Origin: an uncultured Thermotogae bacterium
GTDB lineage: Bacteria > Bipolaricaulota > Bipolaricaulia > UBA7950 > UBA9294
DNA: 64,000 bases
Assembly: GCA_964582285.1 (NCBI GenBank)
Contig: CAZORQ010000003.1
Location: forward strand, 12,559 to 76,558
Reading direction: 5' to 3'
Shown here: positions 22,466 through 45,674 of the stretch, in pieces
Layout: each line of letters opens with the position of its first letter
Position numbering within the stretch: position 1 is the stretch's first letter
Program-made: the position numbers and the translations under genes
The notes under the pieces: model-generated
Databases searched by the model: none
What the model saw: only the letters and a program-made list of their open reading frames with translations
What the model was told of the DNA's origin: nothing

Positions 22466-22750
22466 CTATGGAATTGCGGTCTGTCGGATCTGCTCTATGA
22501 CGACCGTCAAGTCGTCCTGCACGTGATGGAGACTGGCTCGGACCTTGGCCGGGTCGACGCGCGCAAGAGGCACGAGCGGATCGTCGGCAAGTCGATCGAG
22601 GTAAGCATCGATATCGGCGATGACTGTGGACAGACAAGACAGGCCGACCGGGTTGTCGGCTGCATCGAAATGCCGGATTCCACGTTGGAGATGGCCAATC
22701 GCACTGCCAATCAGTGTGAGAAGGTCCACTGTGTCACTTGGTTCTTTCAC
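22466..22750 (-). CDS. Hypothetical 94-aa acidic helical protein
   Basis: GTG 22750 is preceded by GAGGGAG at 6-nt spacing. It lies 47 nt downstream of the sigma gene, with its stop 2 nt before the SDR start. No family recognised. Confidence 0.55.
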   Translation of the reverse strand: MKEPSDTVDLLTLIGSAIGHLQRGIRHFDAADNPVGLSCLSTVIADIDAYLDRLADDPLVPLARVDPAKVRASLHHVQDDLTVVIEQIRQTAIP

Positions 22751-22797: not shown

Positions 22798-23595
22798 CTA
22801 GTTGCCTGAGCCCTGTTCGAGACTGTCCCTCATCTCGCGGAGGATCTTATCCTTCAGTCTAGAAATCTGGCGTTGGGACAGACCAAGCTCGGCTCCTATT
22901 TCTGATTGACTCTTCTTGTCGTAGAACAAGCCTTCGACGATCTGCTGCTGGATCTCGCTCAATCGCTCGATCGCCACGAGCACCCTCATGCGGACATCGT
23001 GCGGCAGGTCCTCAGAACCTGTCATCAATCTCTCAGCGGTTGGCGCCGACGGGTTGGGATCGGTGGTCCGGCGTTGCTGGTCTATCGAGACGTAGGTCAT
23101 CGTGTCGCGTCCCCTAAGCAAAGCGGTTAACTGGTCGTCGGTGAGTCCGAGATCGGAGGCGAGTTCGGCAAGCGTCGGCGGTCGTCCCTGTTGCTGGAAG
23201 AACGTCTCTTCAGCTTCCTTGATACGGCGGTTCATCGTCTGAACCCACTGAGGAATCCGGATTGTGGAGTGCTTGTCACGGATGTAATGCCGGATTTCTC
23301 CTTGGATCAGATAGCTGGCGTAGGTGCTGAATCGCGTGTTGCGTGCCAGATCGAAGTTGGACGCGGCATTCAGAAGACCGATGTAGCCCGCTTGGATCAG
23401 GTCATCGAGCAACTCACCTGAAATCAGGAACTTGATGGCGATCGATTTCACCAGTCCGATGTTCCGACGAACGATTTCCTCACGCAACTCCGCGGGGTCC
23501 AATCCTAGCGGCTTGTCATCGTCCAAGCAGTTCAGGAGCTCAAGGAGCTCTTCATTCGTCAGTGTGCCAGGGACTACTCGTTCCGCTTTGGGCAT
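22798..23595 (-). CDS. RNA polymerase sigma factor, group 3 (SigB/SigF/SigG-like)
   Basis: Region 2 ..DLIQAGYIGLLNAASNFDLARNTRFSTYASYLIQGEIRHYIRD.., region 3 ..PTLAELASDLGLTDDQL.., region 4.2 HTH ..KSQSEIGAELGLSQRQISRLKDKIL... Confidence 0.85.
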   Translation of the reverse strand: MPKAERVVPGTLTNEELLELLNCLDDDKPLGLDPAELREEIVRRNIGLVKSIAIKFLISGELLDDLIQAGYIGLLNAASNFDLARNTRFSTYASYLIQGEIRHYIRDKHSTIRIPQWVQTMNRRIKEAEETFFQQQGRPPTLAELASDLGLTDDQLTALLRGRDTMTYVSIDQQRRTTDPNPSAPTAERLMTGSEDLPHDVRMRVLVAIERLSEIQQQIVEGLFYDKKSQSEIGAELGLSQRQISRLKDKILREMRDSLEQGSGN

Positions 23596-35236: not shown

Positions 35237-36538
35237 ATGGCTAGAATCATCCCGTTTCGAGCGTTTCGTTTCGATCCGGACAAGGTCGGGTCGATCAGCG
35301 ATGTTGTGACGCCGCCGTACGACCGCGTGTATCCGGATGTGCAGGCTGTGTGCTACGAGCGCAACCCAGACAACATCGCCCGGATCATCAAGGGCAAAGC
35401 AAGTCCGGACGACAGCGAATCAGGGAACGTCTATACGCGTGCGGCGGAATTCCTTCGAGAGCGCATCGCTTCGGGTGTGCTGATCCGCGACAACGAACCT
35501 GCGTTGTACGTGTATCACCAGTCGTACCAATTCGAGGGCGAGCAGCTAACCCGCAAGGGGGTCATCGCGCTTGGAAAGCTGGAACCGGAAAAAGTGCACG
35601 CTCACGAGAAAACCCTGAGGGGGCCGAAGGAAGATCGGCTGAAACTCATGCGCGCAACCGAGGCGAACTTCGGACACATCTTCATGCTCTACAGCGATCC
35701 GGAGCGAGCGGCGGACAAGCTGCTGACGGCGGCGGTGGAAGGTGCTTCCCCGTTGATCGAAGCGGCCGATGACCATGGCAACGCGCACCGCGTGTGGCGA
35801 ATCGTCGATCCAGCCGTGATCGAGCAGGTGCAGAGTGTCCTGTCCGAACGTGATCTGTATATCGCTGATGGTCATCACCGCTACGAGACGGCGGTCAACT
35901 ACATGAACGAATGCCTCGGAAACGGGTGGAAACCGGCGGCTCCCGAATCGTTCGATGTTCGGATGATGACGCTGTTCAACGTCGATGAGCCCGGAATGTC
36001 CGTTCGGCCCATCCATCGCCTGGTGCATGGGGTGGACGGTTTCGGGATGGACGCGTTTCTCGACGCCGCGGGAGAGCATTTCAATGTGGCGTGTCATCCG
36101 ACGTGTGACGCGATGGTTGACGCAGTACGCGCGGGTCGGGAGCGACATACCTTTGGGTGCTACGCCGATGGAACGTTCGCCACACTTGAACTTCGAGACG
36201 CTTCAATCATGGATGACCTGGTTGAGGCGAGGTGGTCCGCCGACTACCGGCAGCTTGATGTCACGATTCTCCATACAGCGGTTCTCGAACGGCTGCTTGG
36301 GATCGATTCCAAGGCCCTGGAGGAGCAGAGGAACGTTACCTACACCGTGGATTCGGCCCAGGGGGTCGAAGCGGTCGATCGTGGAGAGGAGCAGCTCTTC
36401 CTATACTTGAATGCAACCGCGGCGGGAGAGGTCGTCCGCGTTGCAGACCATGGGGAGAAAATGCCTCAGAAGTCGACCGACTTCTACCCGAAGCTTCTGA
36501 CGGGATTGGTGCTTTCGACGATGGAGATCGAGAAGTAG
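35237..36538 (+). CDS. DUF1015 domain protein
   Basis: MARIIPFRAFRFDPDKV..VVTPPYD.. and ..LYIADGHHRYETA.. are DUF1015 hallmarks as I recall them. Confidence 0.7.
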   Translation: MARIIPFRAFRFDPDKVGSISDVVTPPYDRVYPDVQAVCYERNPDNIARIIKGKASPDDSESGNVYTRAAEFLRERIASGVLIRDNEPALYVYHQSYQFEGEQLTRKGVIALGKLEPEKVHAHEKTLRGPKEDRLKLMRATEANFGHIFMLYSDPERAADKLLTAAVEGASPLIEAADDHGNAHRVWRIVDPAVIEQVQSVLSERDLYIADGHHRYETAVNYMNECLGNGWKPAAPESFDVRMMTLFNVDEPGMSVRPIHRLVHGVDGFGMDAFLDAAGEHFNVACHPTCDAMVDAVRAGRERHTFGCYADGTFATLELRDASIMDDLVEARWSADYRQLDVTILHTAVLERLLGIDSKALEEQRNVTYTVDSAQGVEAVDRGEEQLFLYLNATAAGEVVRVADHGEKMPQKSTDFYPKLLTGLVLSTMEIEK

Positions 36539-36573
36539 CCACGGCACAAGCGTGCCGTCTTGCGATACGCAGC

Positions 36574-36607
36574 GAAGGGGAGCGTCAGCGTTCCCCTTCT
36601 TGCTTTT
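36574..36607 (+). terminator. Rho-independent terminator after the DUF1015 gene
   Basis: 11-bp stem GAAGGGGAGCG / CGTTCCCCTTC (one G-U pair) with a 4-nt loop, followed by TTGCTTTT. A smaller hairpin ACGGCAC-AAGC-GTGCCGT at 36541-36558 precedes it. Confidence 0.7.
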
Positions 36608-36730
36608 CGGGAGCAGTACATGTGTCCCGGGCACCGGGGACAAACCCACGACCTGTTCCTCGCCCATTTCCCGTTGGGGCGGTCGATTCTCATCTACGCT
36701 TCGAGCGGTGAGATCATGGAGGAGGTCATC

Positions 36731-37912
36731 ATGCGACGGTTATGCGCGAGGATTGCGTTCTGCGCTGTCCTGGTTCTTCTTGTTTGCAGCGGACTTGGAA
36801 TCGCCGACGATGCAGGGTTCTCGGGGTTTGTCGGGCTGGGGATCACGTACACGCCGGTACCTCCGACGTCCTACAATATCGGCGCGGATCTCAAGCTAGC
36901 GTTCGATGTCTCAGGATTCACATTCAGCTCGGAGACAGGATTCGATCTTGCCGGCTTCCAGTCTCAACGCGTGATTCTTGGGATCGATCTCGGAGCCGTC
37001 CGGATCAGAGAGGAGATGCTATTCGACCCAAGTTTCGGTTGGAACGAATTGAATGTCGACCTGGCGATTGCCGGGATCGATATTGGCGTGGACTTCATTC
37101 TGGCGGATATCGGCAGCGTGCAGACGCCGGTCTACAGTATGGGGGCGGTCATTGAGCTCTCGAGCGGGATCGTGTGCGGGTTTTCGATAGCGAGTCTCAC
37201 CGGATTCGGCGCGGTCGATCTGGTCAATATCCTCGAGGGAATCGAGGCGCCGTTCTCGTACGAGCTTCTTCATCTGTTCAATCGACTGGACACGCTATGC
37301 ACGCTGCCTCTGGATCTGGATGTGACGATTGTTCCGGACTTCTACTTCGAGGAGCAGCTTGTCCGATTGGAAGCCGACTTCATGGGGATGATCTCGAGCA
37401 ACACGACATGGTTCGACTCCACGGGGCTCTCACGCATGCTGTTCGAGCTTGGATATCGGTTTGAGGAACCGTCGCTCAGCTTCCTTGCAACCATGGGATT
37501 GGATGGATCCTTCGTGATCACCGATATCGCATTCATCGTGGACCTCCAGATCGATGTGATACGCTTCACGTCTCATACGTGGTTTGAGGAGAACCCGCTT
37601 CCAGCTCCGATTCCAACCGTGTTTGGCGGCCAGGGATTCGCGGTGTCGTTTGAGCTGTGCGGCGTCTTGATCTCCACGGAGACCGGCTTCGACGGGTCGT
37701 TCCTGTTCACACAGCAGCTGATTGCGATCGAGGCGACATTCGATCCGGTGACCTTTAGAAGCCTTACGGAATTCGACGCGAGCGGCTTTGCCGGCCAGTG
37801 CATCTATGCTGATGTCACTTTCTGCGGGGCGAAGCTGTACACGAAAGCGGAGTTCACCTTCTCGGGCATCGAACTCGTCACATTCGGATTCGATTTCTCC
37901 TTCGGTTCATGA
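36731..37912 (+). CDS. Hypothetical secreted beta-rich protein (possible outer-membrane/surface protein)
   Basis: ATG 36731 after GGAGGAGG. Signal peptide MRRLCARIAFCAVLVLLVCSGLGIA. Acidic, rich in aromatic/aliphatic residues, with recurring ..(S/T)ETGFD..F.. segments. Ends ..VTFGFDFSFGS. No family recognised. Confidence 0.6.
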   Translation: MRRLCARIAFCAVLVLLVCSGLGIADDAGFSGFVGLGITYTPVPPTSYNIGADLKLAFDVSGFTFSSETGFDLAGFQSQRVILGIDLGAVRIREEMLFDPSFGWNELNVDLAIAGIDIGVDFILADIGSVQTPVYSMGAVIELSSGIVCGFSIASLTGFGAVDLVNILEGIEAPFSYELLHLFNRLDTLCTLPLDLDVTIVPDFYFEEQLVRLEADFMGMISSNTTWFDSTGLSRMLFELGYRFEEPSLSFLATMGLDGSFVITDIAFIVDLQIDVIRFTSHTWFEENPLPAPIPTVFGGQGFAVSFELCGVLISTETGFDGSFLFTQQLIAIEATFDPVTFRSLTEFDASGFAGQCIYADVTFCGAKLYTKAEFTFSGIELVTFGFDFSFGS

Positions 37913-38574
37913 GCGAACGAGCAGATCTACCAGGGCTGGACGTGGAAGAGCTCCTTCGGCTCCTTGGACAAGAAGGCGAAGACACCGACGGCATACGAGA
38001 GGAGCTTCTTCGGCGGGGAACGCCGATCATTGGAGAGGTCATTGCATCATCGTTTGCCAATACGGGATTCACCAGCGAGGAGCTGTACCGCCCGGGCTAT
38101 CTTGGGCTTCTCAATGCAGTTTACAATTACGATCTCTCTCACGGCAAAGGCTTCCGTGAGTACACGGAAAACCTGATCAAGGGAGAGATCAGGAGCCACA
38201 TTCGCGACCAAGTCCGGCATGTCACGATCCCGGCATGGATGAGCGACCTGAACCAGCAAGTTGAGGTCGCGGAGGCACGGCTTCTACGGGAGACGGGGCA
38301 GCTGCCGAGCCTTGGTCAGCTATCCGACACGGTCAATATCACCGAGGAAGGACTGGCCGAGGTGTTCAAGGCGCGTGAGGCACTCAGCTATGTGTCGCTT
38401 GACGTGAGCAAACGGGAAAACGATCCGGTGCCCGTGATCGACTTATCCAAAATCCGAGCCAAGCGATCCTGCCCCTTCCCCATCGAGTATCGAATCAAGC
38501 TTGCCTCGGCCCTGGAAAGGTTGGCTGAGCTGCAGCAGTACCTCCTTCATAGCCTGTTCCGAGTGGCCGAGTAG
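37909..38574 (+). CDS. Sigma-70-family paralogue (regions 2-4.1) lacking the region 4.2 helix-turn-helix
   Basis: ATGA overlap with the upstream gene. ..GYLGLLNAVYNYDLSHGKGFREYTENLIKGEIRSHIRD.. aligns with the sigma at 22798-23595. Ends ..LERLAELQQYLLHSLFRVAE* exactly where the paralogue continues with its HTH. Confidence 0.7.
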   Translation: MSERADLPGLDVEELLRLLGQEGEDTDGIREELLRRGTPIIGEVIASSFANTGFTSEELYRPGYLGLLNAVYNYDLSHGKGFREYTENLIKGEIRSHIRDQVRHVTIPAWMSDLNQQVEVAEARLLRETGQLPSLGQLSDTVNITEEGLAEVFKAREALSYVSLDVSKRENDPVPVIDLSKIRAKRSCPFPIEYRIKLASALERLAELQQYLLHSLFRVAE

Positions 38575-38721
38575 CCGGACACTTGAGGCCGCATCGACAG
38601 ATGAGACCACGACTTCATTCCATGCTTGTTGTGCAATCGTCGTGATTTCCCCGTGGAGCGACGGTATTCCGCAGCTGCGTCCGCTGCTATAATGGCCGAG
38701 TATCCTGCCGAAGGGGGCGAG

Positions 38722-39375
38722 ATGAAGCGAACGATTATCGGATTGAAGATAAGTCTTCTGGTGGCCGCTCTGGCGGCCGTGGCTGGCTGCGCTCTGTTCA
38801 ATCAGGCGCCGGTGGTGAACTTCACGTGGACACCGTCGGATCCCATGGCACGGTTTGACGTTCAGTTCACGGACTTGTCCACCGATTCCGGCGGCCTGTT
38901 CGGGGGTGGCGGGATCGTGTCGTGGAACTGGGACTTCGGCGACTTTGACACATCCGCTGCTCAGAATCCGAGACACGAATACGAGAAGGGCGGAACCTAC
39001 ACCGTTCGACTGACCGTCACCGATGACGGTGGGGAAACGGCCACACTGACGCGCACGATCACGGTTACGGCGAGCGTCGACGGCCTGTGGACGGGCTCGA
39101 TCACCAACATCTTCTTCGTCCCGATTTCCTTCTCGCTGGATCTCAACCACTCCTCGGCTGGGAACATCAGCGGAACGATGACCATCGGGAACGTGACGCA
39201 GCCTCTGACCGGTGGATCTTACAACCCCATTACGCGAGAGGTTCAGATCAACTGTGCAGGCTTCGATCTCATCCTGCGTGGAGACCTGGACCTGTCGGAG
39301 ACAAGAATGGAAGGGCTCTGGTGGGACGACAACACGGGTCAGGAAGGGGAAAGCTGGAGCGTTACCCTCCTGTAG
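38722..39375 (+). CDS. Lipoprotein with PKD domain and unknown C-terminal domain
   Basis: ATG 38722 after AAGGGGG. Lipobox ..LAAVAGC. PKD signature ..WNWDFGDFDTSAAQNPRHEYEKGGTYTVRLTVTDDGGETAT... Confidence 0.75.
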   Translation: MKRTIIGLKISLLVAALAAVAGCALFNQAPVVNFTWTPSDPMARFDVQFTDLSTDSGGLFGGGGIVSWNWDFGDFDTSAAQNPRHEYEKGGTYTVRLTVTDDGGETATLTRTITVTASVDGLWTGSITNIFFVPISFSLDLNHSSAGNISGTMTIGNVTQPLTGGSYNPITREVQINCAGFDLILRGDLDLSETRMEGLWWDDNTGQEGESWSVTLL

Positions 39376-39438: not shown

Positions 39439-40488
39439 CTAGCTGGCGGGTTTCGCTGCACCGAACGTGAACGGACAGGCGGCGATGCAATTCGAGCAGG
39501 CGGCCGTGTTCTTTGCCCAGAAATCGTAGCATCGATCGGCATTCACCGCCCAACGCAGGATTCCGGTGTTGTTTGAGGGACAGGCCACGTCGAACGAAGG
39601 ATCCCGTACTGTGCTGATGGCGTCCGCCTCGCAGGCATCGGCACATCGGCGGCAGTCGCGGCATGTCTCGACCAGTCCGAAATCGACCGGCTGGTCGGGT
39701 TCGAGTGGTAGGTCGGTGAAGACCTTGCACAACCGAATGCATGAGCCGTACTCCGGTGTGATCAGAAGGCCGTTTCGGCCCAGCTGCCCCAGTCCGGCAT
39801 CGACGGCTAGCGGAATGCTCAACGCGGTGTCGTTGCCCATCGGGATTGCGTTGTAGCGAAGATTTCGAAGGAACTGCGCCATGCAGGCGATCGCGAACGC
39901 CATCTTCGAGTATCCCACTCCGGTGGTCGCGGCAGACTCATACGTCGGGGAGGTCATGACGCCGTCACGATCCATCGCGATTCCCATGACGATCGCGAAA
40001 CGGTACTCGCGGGGGATCGCAACCGGGTCACCGCTCCGGTCGTGCGAGTAGATCCAACGTTCATCGACCTGGCAGATGCCAACCAGATCCGCCCCGAACA
40101 TCTTGGCGGTCTTCTTGATCTCGGCGCTCATCTCGGCGGGATTGCCCACCGGATGTCGGCCGAGCTGCATCATCGCGGGATCGGCCTGCCCGAGCCGCTT
40201 CCACGAGAAGGCACCGCCGAAGCAGTCGTGAACGGTCCAGGAAGCGAGGACACGTGCGAAATCGAGTCGGGAGTAGCCCGGCGCGCCTTCAGAGATCCGA
40301 GAGGCTGCAGCGCTCCGATACTCCTTCTCGAAGAAGGAAGCTTCACGATCCCAATAGCGGCGCATGAAGACCGTCTGTCGTTCGTCGAACCGTCCATGTC
40401 TCTCTGGGTCGATGGTGTGGTGACTGCTGCCGCTGTCGAGCATTCGCTCCTCCTGTCCATCCAATTTGGCACGCCGTACAGGGCGCAA
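39439..40488 (-). CDS. Reductive-dehalogenase-family (RdhA-like) Fe-S protein, cytoplasmic type
   Basis: ..KKTAKMFGADLVGICQVDERW.., ..PLAVDAGLGQLGRNGLLITPEYGSCIRLCKVFTDLPL.., two cluster motifs CRDCRRCADAC and CSNCIAACP. No twin-arginine signal seen. Start may be ATG 40443. Confidence 0.55.
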   Translation of the reverse strand: MRPVRRAKLDGQEERMLDSGSSHHTIDPERHGRFDERQTVFMRRYWDREASFFEKEYRSAAASRISEGAPGYSRLDFARVLASWTVHDCFGGAFSWKRLGQADPAMMQLGRHPVGNPAEMSAEIKKTAKMFGADLVGICQVDERWIYSHDRSGDPVAIPREYRFAIVMGIAMDRDGVMTSPTYESAATTGVGYSKMAFAIACMAQFLRNLRYNAIPMGNDTALSIPLAVDAGLGQLGRNGLLITPEYGSCIRLCKVFTDLPLEPDQPVDFGLVETCRDCRRCADACEADAISTVRDPSFDVACPSNNTGILRWAVNADRCYDFWAKNTAACSNCIAACPFTFGAAKPAS

Positions 40489-42427: not shown

Positions 42428-43786
42428 TCAGCTTCCATGCGGTGCCCCATTGGCGGATTCGGTCAGGCACTGTTCCGCATGAGCTGCGGCGGCGATCCCC
42501 GATCGAACCGCCCCCTCGATCGTCGACGGCCATCCGGTTGCCGTCCAGTCGCCAGCAAGGTACAGGCCGCGGATCGGTGTCTTGGACGGGGGGCGGAGTT
42601 GGTCCGCCTCCGGCTGCGGGATGAACGTTGCCTGCGGGTGGCGAACGACGAGCGTTCGCTTGAGTCCAGCCTCTCGTGCGGAGGGGAGAAGCTTGCTGAG
42701 TTCGGCGAGCAGTAATTGCACGATGACGGCGTTCGGGTGCTCTAGCCACTCATCGGCAGCGCTTTGAGAGAAGACGAGATGGGTCACCCCATCTCGCAAA
42801 GGCTCTCTGTGGAGCTGCGTCACATCGAAGAGGGCCTGCACGGGTGAGTTGACCGCGACCACGAATGCATGATCGAGCACTGGCCGATCGAACCAAACGT
42901 GAAGGTTGACAATCGGTGCCCAGCGAATCTGGGCAGCTCGCGCAATCAGGCGGTCGAGTGCCGCGTCCTCCTTCTCGCGCACGAGGCGGGCGAACTCGGC
43001 TGGAGGAACTGCACAGACGGCAGCTGTACACTCGATGGTTTCTCCGGTCACAAGCTGAACCCCGCGGATGCAACCGTCCTCCACGATCAACTGACGCACG
43101 GGTGCAGAAAGGCGAATCGCTCCGCCTCTCTGCTCAATGTAGTCCCGGGCCGCCTCGAAGATCTGCGAAAGCGCCACAGTGAAGAAGCCCATGTTCGCAC
43201 CATCAGCGTGAAAGAATGCGTCACGGAACACCTTGCGTGCAGCGTGCAGGCCGACAGCACTCGTCGGAGCATTCAGCGTGGCGATGGAGATCGGATCCCA
43301 CAGACAGCGAATTGTTGCCTCGGTTTGCCCATGGTTGGCGAGCCAATTACCGAAGGGCGGATCCTTCTCTCCGCCATGCAACGACAGCGTCAGACCGGCT
43401 TGAATCGTGCGAAGCCGATCCGGGAACGAGAGTACCCGATAGCGAAGAAGCGCCGGTGCGAGGTGAAGTATCCCGGGGAGAAGAGACGAGCGGAGAACTG
43501 CCGTGGCATCGGGTGATGCGATCGGGATAGCAAGGCGCGACTGGAATTGCACGGTATCGGGCATACCGATCCGAAGAAGGAAGCCGGTTGCAGCGGTGCA
43601 GCACTGCATCAGCACATGATGCCCGTAGTCGACTGTCTCACCTGCGTCGGCAAGCTGGAACGATGCAGCGCGACCGCCGAGCCGCGGTGCGCGTTCGAGC
43701 AACAACGGGCGACGGCCTTCGCCGGAGAGCCGACAGGCGGCGGCGGCTCCCGAAAACCCGCCACCGATGACGACGACTCCACTCAT
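42428..43786 (-). CDS. hpnE: Hydroxysqualene dehydroxylase HpnE (FAD amine-oxidase fold)
   Basis: MSGVVVIGGGFSGAAAACRL..LLLERAPRLGGRA... Position after hpnC-hpnD. ..LYLAGDWT... Confidence 0.8.
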   Translation of the reverse strand: MSGVVVIGGGFSGAAAACRLSGEGRRPLLLERAPRLGGRAASFQLADAGETVDYGHHVLMQCCTAATGFLLRIGMPDTVQFQSRLAIPIASPDATAVLRSSLLPGILHLAPALLRYRVLSFPDRLRTIQAGLTLSLHGGEKDPPFGNWLANHGQTEATIRCLWDPISIATLNAPTSAVGLHAARKVFRDAFFHADGANMGFFTVALSQIFEAARDYIEQRGGAIRLSAPVRQLIVEDGCIRGVQLVTGETIECTAAVCAVPPAEFARLVREKEDAALDRLIARAAQIRWAPIVNLHVWFDRPVLDHAFVVAVNSPVQALFDVTQLHREPLRDGVTHLVFSQSAADEWLEHPNAVIVQLLLAELSKLLPSAREAGLKRTLVVRHPQATFIPQPEADQLRPPSKTPIRGLYLAGDWTATGWPSTIEGAVRSGIAAAAHAEQCLTESANGAPHGS

Positions 43787-44790
43787 GTGCGTCTCCAGGA
43801 TGAAGACAGCAAGAGCCAGAGCTTCTCACGTGTGGGGAGCGACACGCGACCGCCGAATACGTCGCAATCGCCGGCGATGATTCTAGAGAGGATCCGACTG
43901 TAGATCTCGGACAGCAGCCAAGGACACGCTCGGCTTCGGCGCGGAAGTAGTGCAAGGAGACGGCGGCCCCGGTCGAGCAAGTCGGTTGCTCGGGCGGCAT
44001 GCGCGGCGAGAAGATCGCGCAGTCCGTCGCTCATCCGCCGTTCTTCCATCTGTGTCCTCTCCACACCGTGGCCCGCGAACTCCTCTTCCGGAAGGTAGAT
44101 CCGTCCCAAGGAGAGATCTTCATCGACATCGCGAAGGATGTTGACGTACTGCATCCCGAGACCAAGGTCGATGGCTGCCTCACGCATCGCATTGGTAGGC
44201 GTTGCGGCGTTGGTGAGGATCGGAAGCGTGGCCAGCCCGACGGCGGAGGCGACGTGGTAGCAGTAGGTCCGAAGCTCATCGTAGGTTTGGATATGAGCCG
44301 GGGTTAGGTCCATCTCGACGCCGCTGATGACATCGCGCAAGTCCTCCTCGCGCACGCCGAATCGATGGATCGCATCAGCGAGTGCGAGATCGCGTGGTGT
44401 GGTTGGCTTGCCGCGCCCCGCGCACGCCAGGCGCGCTCGCATTGCCTTCAACTCCGCCCGGCGTCTCTCCAGGTCTGCCGAATCACGACTGCCCGCACTA
44501 GAACCAACATCCTGTACGTCCCCCACCGAGAGAACGGCTGTGCTGTTCTCTCCCCCGAATGTCGTATCGAGAGGATTCGGGCGAACGGCTGTGCTGTTCT
44601 CTCCCGCGGACGAAGGTACTTCTGTGCCTTCGTCCGCGATATCGTCAGCTTCGTGGCAGAACGCATACAGGGCATACACGGCTCGGCGTTGATCCCGGGG
44701 AAGACTGAGAAACGCGAAGTAGAAATTCCGGGCGGCCCGGCGTGCGGTGCGCTCGGACACGCGATAGGAGCGCTCTAGATCTGTCGCCAT
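43783..44790 (-). CDS. hpnD: Presqualene diphosphate synthase HpnD, with a ~45-aa low-complexity insertion
   Basis: ..RAARNFYFAFLSLPRDQRRAVYALYAFCHEADDIADE.., ..YCYHVASAVG.., ..NILRDVDEDLSLGRIYLP... The insertion ..GENSTAVRPNPLDTTFGGENSTAVLSVGDVQDVG.. comes after the first Asp-rich motif. Confidence 0.8.
   Translation of the reverse strand: MATDLERSYRVSERTARRAARNFYFAFLSLPRDQRRAVYALYAFCHEADDIADEGTEVPSSAGENSTAVRPNPLDTTFGGENSTAVLSVGDVQDVGSSAGSRDSADLERRRAELKAMRARLACAGRGKPTTPRDLALADAIHRFGVREEDLRDVISGVEMDLTPAHIQTYDELRTYCYHVASAVGLATLPILTNAATPTNAMREAAIDLGLGMQYVNILRDVDEDLSLGRIYLPEEEFAGHGVERTQMEERRMSDGLRDLLAAHAARATDLLDRGRRLLALLPRRSRACPWLLSEIYSRILSRIIAGDCDVFGGRVSLPTREKLWLLLSSSWRRT
44532..44605. repeat. 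Diverged 51-bp in-frame tandem duplication inside hpnD
   Basis: GAACGGCTGTGCTGTTCTCTCCC occurs at 44532-44554 and 44583-44605. Copy 1 is embedded in an 8-bp-arm palindrome GAGAGAAC-N9-GTTCTCTC. Confidence 0.85.
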
Positions 44791-45674
44791 CGTTTCGAGG
44801 AGAGCGCATAGAGCGCAAGGCCGACCTTCTCGGCGCCGGACAACGACGGCCGTTGGGAGAGCGTGTCGTAGCCCTGCCGTTCGATCTTCCTGAGGATGGC
44901 AAGGCCGCCAAGGGAGAACAGCGAGAGGTCGACTCGGAGACGACCTACCACCCGGTCGAGCAGCGGGAGACCGGCACGGAAGTAGGAGCGGGTCCGGTCG
45001 ACCTGGAAGCGCATCAGATCCTTCAGAGCTGGTGATGCGCGATCCTCGCGCAGCTGCGAACGCGCGAGTCCGTACTCCACCATCTCATCCGCAGGTAGAT
45101 ATACGCGACCAATGGCGGCGTCCCGCTTCACATCCTGCCAGAAGTTTGCGAGTTGGAGGGCCGTGCAGGTAGCGTCGGAGAGAGCGAAACGCTGTTCATC
45201 ACGGTGGCCATTGATCATCAAGACGAGGCGACCGACCGGATTCGCAGAGTGTGCGCAGTAGCGAAGTAGCTCGTCAAATGTGGGGAACGTGTCCGTTCGT
45301 TGGTCGATCCGGTTTGCCTCGATCAGCAGGGCGAACGGCTCGCGCGGAAGATCGAATTGGACGATCGTCTGCTGAAGTGCTACAAGCACAGGATGACGTG
45401 GCTGTGCCGTAAATGCGGCATGGAGCTCCTCCTCAAATCGATCGAGAAGTGCCAATCGGTCGCCGGGGGCCTCGTCGCCGATGTCATCCACGGTACGGCA
45501 GTACGCGTACAGCGCGGCAAGATGACGCCGCATCGCACGTGAGGAAAGCCACGACAAGACGGTGAAATTCTCGTAATGAGAGGTGGCCAGTGCCATGCAG
45601 AACCGATGGGCTTCCTCGATGGAAGCGGGTACCGGAGGCGGGCGGAGCAGAGCGTCCACGTGCGCTGCTACCAT
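44775..45674 (-). CDS. hpnC: Squalene synthase HpnC
   Basis: ..ALATSHYENFTV.., ..LYAYCRTVDDIGDE.., ..YCAHSANPVGRL.., ..NFWQDVKRDAAIGRVYLP... Confidence 0.82.
   Translation of the reverse strand: MVAAHVDALLRPPPVPASIEEAHRFCMALATSHYENFTVLSWLSSRAMRRHLAALYAYCRTVDDIGDEAPGDRLALLDRFEEELHAAFTAQPRHPVLVALQQTIVQFDLPREPFALLIEANRIDQRTDTFPTFDELLRYCAHSANPVGRLVLMINGHRDEQRFALSDATCTALQLANFWQDVKRDAAIGRVYLPADEMVEYGLARSQLREDRASPALKDLMRFQVDRTRSYFRAGLPLLDRVVGRLRVDLSLFSLGGLAILRKIERQGYDTLSQRPSLSGAEKVGLALYALSSKRWRQI

Follow-up and report, generated by a model that had tools for sequence, protein, structure and literature searches.

Is a sigma factor that lacks its −35-reading helix-turn-helix (HTH) a damaged gene, a regulator built on a sigma fold, or a working subunit of RNA polymerase (RNAP)? 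This question is raised by sigT, a gene in a 64,000-nucleotide stretch of contig CAZORQ010000003.1 (hereafter the window) from an uncultured bacterium placed in the Bipolaricaulota, whose product resembles SigB/F-type sigma factors and stops where the HTH of region 4.2 is expected to begin (Table 1). Here, we report that the truncation is real and conserved, that sigT is joined to a gene for a predicted outer-membrane protein behind a conserved upstream DNA element, and that SigT can tentatively be read as a sigma subunit that functions without a −35 reader.

SigT is a sigma-70-family protein that ends before region 4.2

SigT aligned with a full-length SigB/F-type paralogue encoded elsewhere in the window at 34% identity (BLASTP, E = 8e-42; residues 23-217 on 31-224), and the alignment ended at the C-terminus of the shorter protein. 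Pfam models for sigma regions 2 and 3 were matched in SigT (Sigma70_r2 at 45-103; Sigma70_r3, PF04539, at 116-171, the latter a weak match of 16.4 bits) with no match to region 4, and the paralogue matched all three, with region 4 at 208-256 (E = 1.3e-11). Against the NCBIfam model for SigB/F/G (TIGR02980), SigT covered profile positions 4-191 of 227 (E = 1e-26, 93.8 bits) and the paralogue positions 3-226 (175.8 bits), both scores being below the curated cut-off of 234.35 bits. A hidden Markov model (HMM) of the C-terminus, representing the last ~85 residues of full-length relatives, matched SigT over regions 3.2/4.1 only (HMM positions 8-50) and matched the paralogue through the HTH. The final conserved segment of SigT (residues 190-217) reads FPxEYRIRLASALEKLADLQQYLLHSLF and corresponds to positions 1-17 of the Pfam region 4 model as aligned in the paralogue. 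No HTH was encoded in any of the three translated frames of the spacer that follows the SigT stop codon. The original prediction, made by eye, had described SigT as a SigB/F-type paralogue that terminates before the region 4.2 HTH and leaves no HTH remnant downstream. BLASTP, Pfam, TIGR02980, and the C-terminal HMM agree on the former, with regions 2 and 3 matched, the 4.1 part present, and 4.2 absent, and the translated spacer together with a six-frame HMM search confirms the latter.

The predicted structure of SigT is consistent with this assignment. An AlphaFold2 (AF2) model with a predicted local distance difference test (pLDDT) score of 88 comprised a sigma2-sigma3 fold followed by a single long C-terminal helix (residues 192-217, pLDDT about 90). 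The best Protein Data Bank (PDB) matches of this model in Foldseek were sigma subunits, nearly all within RNAP initiation or holoenzyme complexes, and the closest solved sequences were sigma-F (1L0O_C, E = 4e-24) and Staphylococcus aureus SigB (8X6G_H, E = 3e-22). A column was counted as conserved at 75% or more across 59 full-length relatives, which yielded 31 columns inside the shared region; SigT retains 26 of them, including F82, Y85, A86, I90, G92-E93-I94, and R99-D100 in regions 2.3/2.4 and P108 in region 3.0. Within the SigT family, residues P108, W110, P133, S163, R169, D172, and P173 of the region 3 segment are invariant.

The truncation is reproducible, conserved, and under selection

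The sequence across positions 37800-38800, stop codon included, was identical in four independent runs of public metagenome data, drawn from three studies. Among 5.8 billion proteins searched, 252 relatives were identified; the top 120 clusters all measured 215-230 amino acids and showed 62-77% identity. Every aligned homolog terminates 3-6 residues past an invariant ..LQQxLxxxLF, and conservation in the alignment continues right to the LF end point. The same end point was observed in contigs from the GTDB (one genome per species), where 50 loci with sigT were identified, about 45 of them complete, and every complete locus has its stop codon 3-20 residues past LF. The stop codon itself differs by lineage (TAG, TGA, or TAA), and the tail that precedes it is variable and of low complexity. 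Across homolog clusters and species loci, identity in the family ranges from 41 to 77%, and distant members (P0121, 53% identity and 227 amino acids; P0123, 44% and 214 amino acids) are truncated alike. The nearest full-length sigma factor (P0122, 275 amino acids) is 44% identical. Among 26 SigT members scanned with Pfam, all 26 matched region 2 (E ≤ 0.1, best 1.2e-08), all 26 matched region 3 (best 2.8e-08), and none matched region 4 (PF04545 / PF08281).

Ratios of nonsynonymous to synonymous substitution rates (dN/dS; Nei-Gojobori) in close pairs of sigT ranged from 0.09 to 0.25. Segment medians were 0.22 for region 2, 0.16 for region 3, 0.38 for the 3.2 linker, and 0.18 for the 4.1 helices, values that show purifying selection on every retained segment, the 3.2 linker and the 4.1 helices among them.

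Could SigT nevertheless be a pseudogene, the product of a recent nonsense mutation or assembly error, or a protein whose missing part is added through frameshifting, readthrough, or DNA rearrangement? Such events do occur, since an ortholog of the full-length paralogue in another genome (L056, positions 594-1400) carries an in-frame TAG at the very boundary of regions 4.1 and 4.2 (..VAGLF*EGRSQDEVGRSLGISQRQVSRL..), and an intact HTH (EGRSQDEVGRSLGISQRQVSRLRERIL) persists in the same frame beyond this TAG, which adjoins ..GLF. This is the appearance of a recent truncation, and SigT shows nothing comparable: the sequence is identical in four runs, the end point is kept throughout the phylum with three different stop codons, dN/dS is low, and an HTH is found in no downstream frame. 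Because of the identical runs and the end point shared by every complete relative, the truncation is confirmed as real and as far exceeding chance, and artefact or pseudogene explanations are effectively refuted, leaving them a negligible probability. Thus, the suspicion in the original prediction that a simple frameshift or nonsense artefact was improbable proved justified; full-length orthologs in close relatives had been named as the observation that would overturn it, and all of the roughly 250 relatives are instead truncated at the same point, a truncation conserved at low dN/dS. The TAG in L056, which is known from a single 1.9-kb contig, may itself reflect recent nonsense mutation, erroneous sequencing, or readthrough.

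Few of the best clusters carry names, and those that do are from Candidatus Bipolaricaulota. Titles of the loci read Bipolaricaulota, Acetothermia, Bipolaricaulis, or bear the unverified labels "uncultured Thermotogae" and, in one case, "Atribacteria". The titles "uncultured Thermotogae" and "Candidatus Atribacteria" (L005, L007, L009, L011, and others) are probably coarse or wrong. A phage origin and a place in a defence system were considered and rejected; no relatives of SigT were found in viral contigs. Many distant relatives (P0133, P0140, and other proteins of 400-480 amino acids) comprise a complete sigma factor with regions 2, 3, and 4 and a C-terminal GGDEF diguanylate cyclase domain. 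A full-length sigma factor from L051 (45% identity), encoded in the order yidC-jag-mnmE-sigma-secF, was considered as an ancestral ortholog and rejected, as its locus has no gene U (see below), this gene order differs from that around sigT, and the protein is equally close to the paralogue and to SigT.

SigT is coupled to a predicted outer-membrane barrel protein

A gene that we denote U directly precedes sigT wherever a locus extends far enough 5', at 48-84% identity. The stop codon of U and the start codon of sigT are separated by −4 to +11 nucleotides in 48 of 49 loci, mostly with no separate Shine-Dalgarno sequence for sigT. Because the two codons overlap or lie at most 11 nucleotides apart and sigT mostly lacks its own ribosome-binding signal, this arrangement indicates that U and sigT are translationally coupled. 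The Shine-Dalgarno sequence of U is strong, and its AGG.GG core is invariant in the alignment.

No Pfam or NCBIfam family matched U, and its 208 relatives are from Bipolaricaulota only. The protein has a hydrophobic N-terminus and an AxA-like site, 22 of the 38 sequences end in F or Y, and dN/dS is about 0.25. AF2 predicted an all-β structure of about 22 strands (pLDDT 80; one of five models was confident). The 50 best PDB matches listed by Foldseek were all membrane β-barrels, including porin, VDAC, TOM40, LptD, FimD/PapC ushers, and OprC, with template modeling scores (TM-scores) of 0.3-0.4. Collectively, these observations predict that U is an outer-membrane β-barrel protein, which fits reports of a Thermotoga-like outer membrane in Acetothermia/Bipolaricaulota (PMC6092417; bioRxiv 10.1101/2025.11.21.689855).

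Genes downstream of sigT vary among loci, comprising the secreted proteins D1 and D2 and/or a lipoprotein with a PKD domain, and comparison of intergenic regions shows that these neighbors have ordinary TAnAAT −10 boxes of their own. Based on gene order, the conserved unit is therefore the bicistron U-sigT. The original prediction made no mention of the coupling to U or of the conserved DNA element that precedes it.

A conserved DNA element precedes the U-sigT operon

An intrinsic terminator of the preceding DUF1015 gene, with an equivalent hairpin and T-run visible in other loci, sets U-sigT apart as a transcription unit that begins here. Between this terminator and the start codon of U (positions 36619-36700; 6709-6790 in L001), all 48 loci with this region contained CA-N2-TGTCC-N11-GAC(A/G)AA-N22-TTTCC-N22/23-TAnnnT at fixed spacing, followed by the strong Shine-Dalgarno sequence. 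In an alignment of 38 loci, T60-C64, T88, A89, and T93 (numbered by the row of the window) were invariant or at least 90% conserved, and no conserved hexamer was present at the canonical −35 distance from TAnnnT. Variants of the promoter follow clades when compared with SigT residues of regions 2.4/3.0. The bipartite TGTCC-N11-GACRAA occurs once in each 12-kb locus and once in the 64-kb window, only 5' of U.

An RNA element upstream of U was considered and rejected: RNAalifold yielded −1.3 kcal/mol, four pairs, and no compensatory change in the region, and no Rfam family matched it. RNA structure, covariation, and Rfam matches were all lacking, and a scan of positions 36400-38900 yielded no canonical sigma-70 promoter; the conserved blocks are therefore signals at the DNA level, belonging to a non-standard promoter or operator. 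Two arrangements are possible. In the first, GACRAA would act as a −10-like element, which places TGTCC at about −28 to −24, and a −35-like block containing ACA would lie 18 nucleotides upstream. In the second, the −10 element would be TAnnnT, TTTCC would fall at −40 to −36, and the bipartite element would serve as an upstream site.

The invariant TGTCC box, which keeps a fixed distance to a −10-like element downstream of it, is also consistent with SigT being one part of a split sigma factor, in which a separate DNA-binding protein seated on the exposed 4.1 helices reads upstream DNA (e.g., TGTCC). Such a partner would account for a hydrophobic stripe on helices 190-217 that is invariant despite the missing HTH against which it would pack, and split sigma factors do exist (PMC7826278). 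However, searches with region 4 HMMs in all six frames of the 64-kb window and 50 loci of about 12 kb identified an HTH in just two proteins, the full-length paralogue and its ortholog L051, with no orphan region 4.2 HTH in any frame. In addition, synteny revealed no small conserved HTH gene near sigT, and the remaining proteins of the operon are all secreted. We therefore regard a partner-assisted SigT as rather improbable.

Proposed function of SigT

The original prediction listed three modes of action, namely a decoy, a −35-independent sigma factor, and a partner-assisted sigma factor. This remains the right list, and the evidence favors an active sigma factor. Our leading interpretation, which we advance tentatively, is that SigT is a functional sigma-70-family subunit of RNAP that has permanently lost its −35-reading HTH and probably acts on its own operon. 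SigT would bind core RNAP through region 2.2, thread region 3.2 through the RNA-exit channel, and dock the retained 4.1 helices on the β-flap tip, opening promoters via a −10-type element alone. Upstream affinity would be provided by core contacts (β' zipper / spacer) or by an additional factor at the TGTCC box. The most probable target would be the U-sigT operon itself, forming a small regulatory module for an envelope gene. SigT would then represent a single-chain cellular analogue of phage T4 gp55 plus gp33, or of laboratory sigma truncations without region 4.2.

An active −35-independent sigma factor is favored because the retained parts match what a sigma factor needs for seating on RNAP and for opening a −10 element; the 3.2 linker and 4.1 helices would have no obvious role off the polymerase. 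It is also favored because a Thermus aquaticus truncation and T4 gp55/gp33 demonstrate initiation without a −35 element. The status of U-sigT as a separate operon, with its own terminator boundary, no canonical promoter, and a private element beside neighbors that use ordinary TAnAAT boxes, likewise counts in favor of this interpretation, as do the conserved end point, the purifying selection on retained segments, the retained key positions, and the sigma fold. In a bolder form, which is conceivable but which we hold with less assurance, SigT would be a dedicated cellular sigma factor of Bipolaricaulota without any −35 reader, anchored to RNAP by its domain 4 stump, made in stoichiometric amounts with a major barrel protein, and reading promoters of a new type (TGTCC-N11-GACRAA and/or TTTCC-N22-TAnnnT). 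If true, outer-membrane biogenesis would be linked directly to transcription initiation of a non-canonical mode, for which phage T4 and engineered mutants have been the only precedents.

Several observations weigh against an active SigT. In the DLxQxG motif of region 2.2 (residues 49-64, positions 38053-38098 in sigT), 110 of 128 relatives have the near-universal Q, whereas 118 of 120 SigT sequences have R, with P adjoining the R; the same exchange in sigma-32 of Escherichia coli (Q80R), in work by Joo and colleagues in 1997, reportedly lowers affinity for core. The Pfam region 2 match of SigT (PF04542, E = 5.5e-05) scores 23.3 bits, slightly below the gathering score of 24, and many of the retained residues may merely maintain the fold. 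The bipartite element is present in single copy in the window and in each locus, with no regulon shown, and its reader could be the full-length paralogue or an ordinary transcription factor. Finally, no RNA runs containing the locus were found, the available runs being DNA metagenomes.

The exchange of Q for R at the main core-binding residue would suit a protein that no longer needs core, such as a sigma mimic that does not support transcription but titrates the anti-sigma factor of the paralogue, with production of U then freeing that sigma factor. Sigma mimicry is an established principle, as exemplified by PhyR. In the SpoIIAB/sigma-F system, the anti-sigma factor recognizes regions 2.1, 3.1, and 4.1, surfaces that SigT as a mimic would have kept, and the best PDB sequence match of SigT, 1L0O_C, is sigma-F crystallized with SpoIIAB. 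A possible partner or anti-sigma factor of the paralogue is a conserved small open reading frame (ORF) directly downstream of it in three divergent genomes; homologs in the same position (86-98 amino acids) are present in L056 (1420-1716; 38% identity, E = 3e-13) and L051 (6735-6995). However, this ORF has no Pfam or NCBIfam family assignment, and tblastn detected no homolog of RsbW/SpoIIAB or RsbV/SpoIIAA in the window or the 50 loci, although the queries were approximate sequences, which makes this a weak test. Moreover, a mimic would have no need of a conserved 3.2 linker and −10-reading residues. On balance, titration of an anti-sigma factor is unlikely, though it is the most credible of the alternatives to an active SigT.

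SigT may instead be a competitive decoy, holding core or the −10 element of the operon unproductively and so damping transcription by the paralogue, or of its own operon, in proportion to translation of U. The −10-reading helices of the two proteins are nearly equal (GEIRSHIRD in SigT versus GEIRHYIRD in the paralogue), and, since U has a very strong Shine-Dalgarno sequence, its strict coupling to sigT suggests dosage-linked production. In contrast, engineered sigma factors without region 4.2 are active rather than inert (PMC3173786), and the exchange of Q for R would weaken a pure competitor for core. We consider a decoy distinctly unlikely, and the least credible of the modes of action considered for an intact SigT.

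Neighboring genes

Upstream of U are serC-like, serA-like, and DUF1015 genes, followed by the terminator. In most lineages the genes downstream of sigT encode D1 (~260 amino acids) and D2 (~386 amino acids), which are secreted and belong to no family (L001, 8763-10737; L003, 8780-10757; and others); D2 has a faint Ig/Fn3-like signal. The lineage of the window has lost D1 and D2 and retains only the PKD-domain lipoprotein gene, preceded by a perfect TATAAT box. Based on gene calls in L004, positions 39439-40488 (−) encode a reductive-dehalogenase-like Fe-S protein and positions 42428-45674 (−) a cluster comprising two squalene/phytoene-synthase genes and an amine-oxidase-type desaturase (carotenoid- or hopanoid-like).

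Table 1. Features of the sigT locus and of its full-length paralogue, in coordinates of the window.
Feature	Position	Strand	Description
Terminator of the preceding DUF1015 gene	36574..36609	+	Intrinsic; stem 36574-36599 and T tail (terminator scan)
Bipartite element	36619..36644	+	CA (36619-20)-N2-TGTCC (36623-27)-N11-GACAAA (36639-44); candidate promoter/operator
Second conserved pair	36667..36700	+	TTTCC (36667-71)-N22/23-TAnnnT (TACGCT 36695-36700); −10-like hexamer
Shine-Dalgarno of U	36718..36725	+	GGAGGAGG; strong, conserved
Gene U	36731..37912	+	393 amino acids; signal peptide, predicted outer-membrane β-barrel of ~22 strands
ATGA overlap	37909..37912	+	U stop codon / sigT start codon
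sigT	37909..38574	+	221 amino acids, ATG start, TAG stop; sigma-70 family (SigB/F-like), without region 4.2 HTH
sigT region 2, residues 41-105	38029..38223	+	Core-binding 2.2, −10 recognition/melting 2.3-2.4; Q→R at residue 61
sigT residues 106-189	38224..38475	+	Region 3.0/3.1 and 3.2 linker (sigma finger)
sigT residues 190-217	38476..38559	+	Two N-terminal helices of domain 4 (region 4.1); final conserved segment
RVAE tail and TAG stop	38560..38574	+	Short, variable; expected start point of region 4.2 HTH
Spacer 3' of sigT	38575..38721	+	147 nucleotides, no HTH remnant; TATAAT at 38688-38693
PKD-domain lipoprotein gene	38722..39375	+	Pfam PKD_4, E = 4e-17; variable downstream neighbor
Small ORF	22466..22750	−	94 amino acids, conserved, directly downstream of the full-length paralogue
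Full-length SigB/F-type paralogue	22798..23595	−	265 amino acids; regions 2, 3, and 4 with HTH; comparator

Comparison with known systems

To our knowledge, all characterized cellular sigma-70-family factors have the domain 4 HTH either in cis or from a second subunit, and HTH-free initiation has been shown only for late transcription in phage T4 and for artificial truncations. The literature searched contained nothing specific on natural sigma factors lacking region 4 or 4.2 or on sigma factors of Bipolaricaulota, and Pfam, NCBIfam, and PADLOC have no model that describes the SigT class, the sole PADLOC match being a generic sigma similarity to MzaA. The original prediction likewise knew of no characterized class of this kind. 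SigT is best filed as a new, uncharacterized variant of the sigma-70 family that is homologous to group 3 SigB/F/G and defined by loss of region 4.2 with retention of 4.1, R for Q in region 2.2, obligate coupling to a barrel gene, and a private upstream DNA element. Its maintenance across a deep-branching phylum points either to natural −35-independent initiation or to recruitment of a sigma fold as a regulator (decoy or mimic). The fixed coupling to a barrel gene provides a handle on envelope regulation in atypical "toga"-type diderms, and the system is small, consisting of two genes and a control region of 120 bp. The first isolate from this phylum has now been described (bioRxiv 10.1101/2025.11.21.689855).

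The closest relatives are SigB, SigF, and SigG (TIGR02980; Geobacillus sigma-F, 1L0O_C; S. aureus SigB, 8X6G_H), to which SigT is homologous over regions 1.2-4.1 and with which it shares the GYxGLxxA and GEIRxxxRD motifs and the predicted fold. SigT differs from them in the absence of the region 4.2 HTH (profile positions 192-227), a score below the cut-off of the family, and R for Q in region 2.2. It also differs in genomic context, as no adjoining partner-switching genes of the RsbW/RsbV type were found and sigT is coupled to an outer-membrane barrel gene.

The sigma-like domain of PhyR is similar to extracytoplasmic function (ECF) sigma factors, is fused to a receiver domain, and has degenerate DNA-contact residues. 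PhyR and SigT may be alike in having a sigma fold without DNA-binding capacity that could act by binding an anti-sigma factor, but SigT is free-standing and retains the region 2.3/2.4 signature. SigO-RsoA of Bacillus subtilis is a two-subunit ECF-like sigma factor whose sigma2 and sigma4 domains are encoded by adjacent genes (PMC7826278). In both cases sigma function would not be contained in one canonical polypeptide, and the missing part of SigT may come in trans; however, no complementary HTH gene adjoins sigT.

Truncations of E. coli sigma-70 are said to be active at extended −10 promoters, a finding associated with Kumar and colleagues in 1993. With sigma-A 1-390 of T. aquaticus, from which region 4.2 is missing, a holoenzyme forms that can use −10-only promoters through contact between the β' zipper and the spacer (PMC3173786). 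These laboratory truncations share the architecture of SigT, with regions 2 and 3 present and 4.2 absent, but they are artificial deletions of group 1 factors, whereas SigT is a natural, conserved derivative of group 3 that keeps region 4.1.

In phage T4, the late sigma factor gp55 and its co-activator gp33 constitute a −10-only module without a −35 reader, in which gp33 binds the β-flap, makes no contact with DNA, and initiation requires the sliding clamp. SigT has no detectable sequence relationship to these proteins and differs from the pair of phage proteins in being one cellular polypeptide that has a domain 3. The analogy is thus functional only, and it suggests that the retained 4.1 helices of SigT might sit on the polymerase in the manner of gp33.

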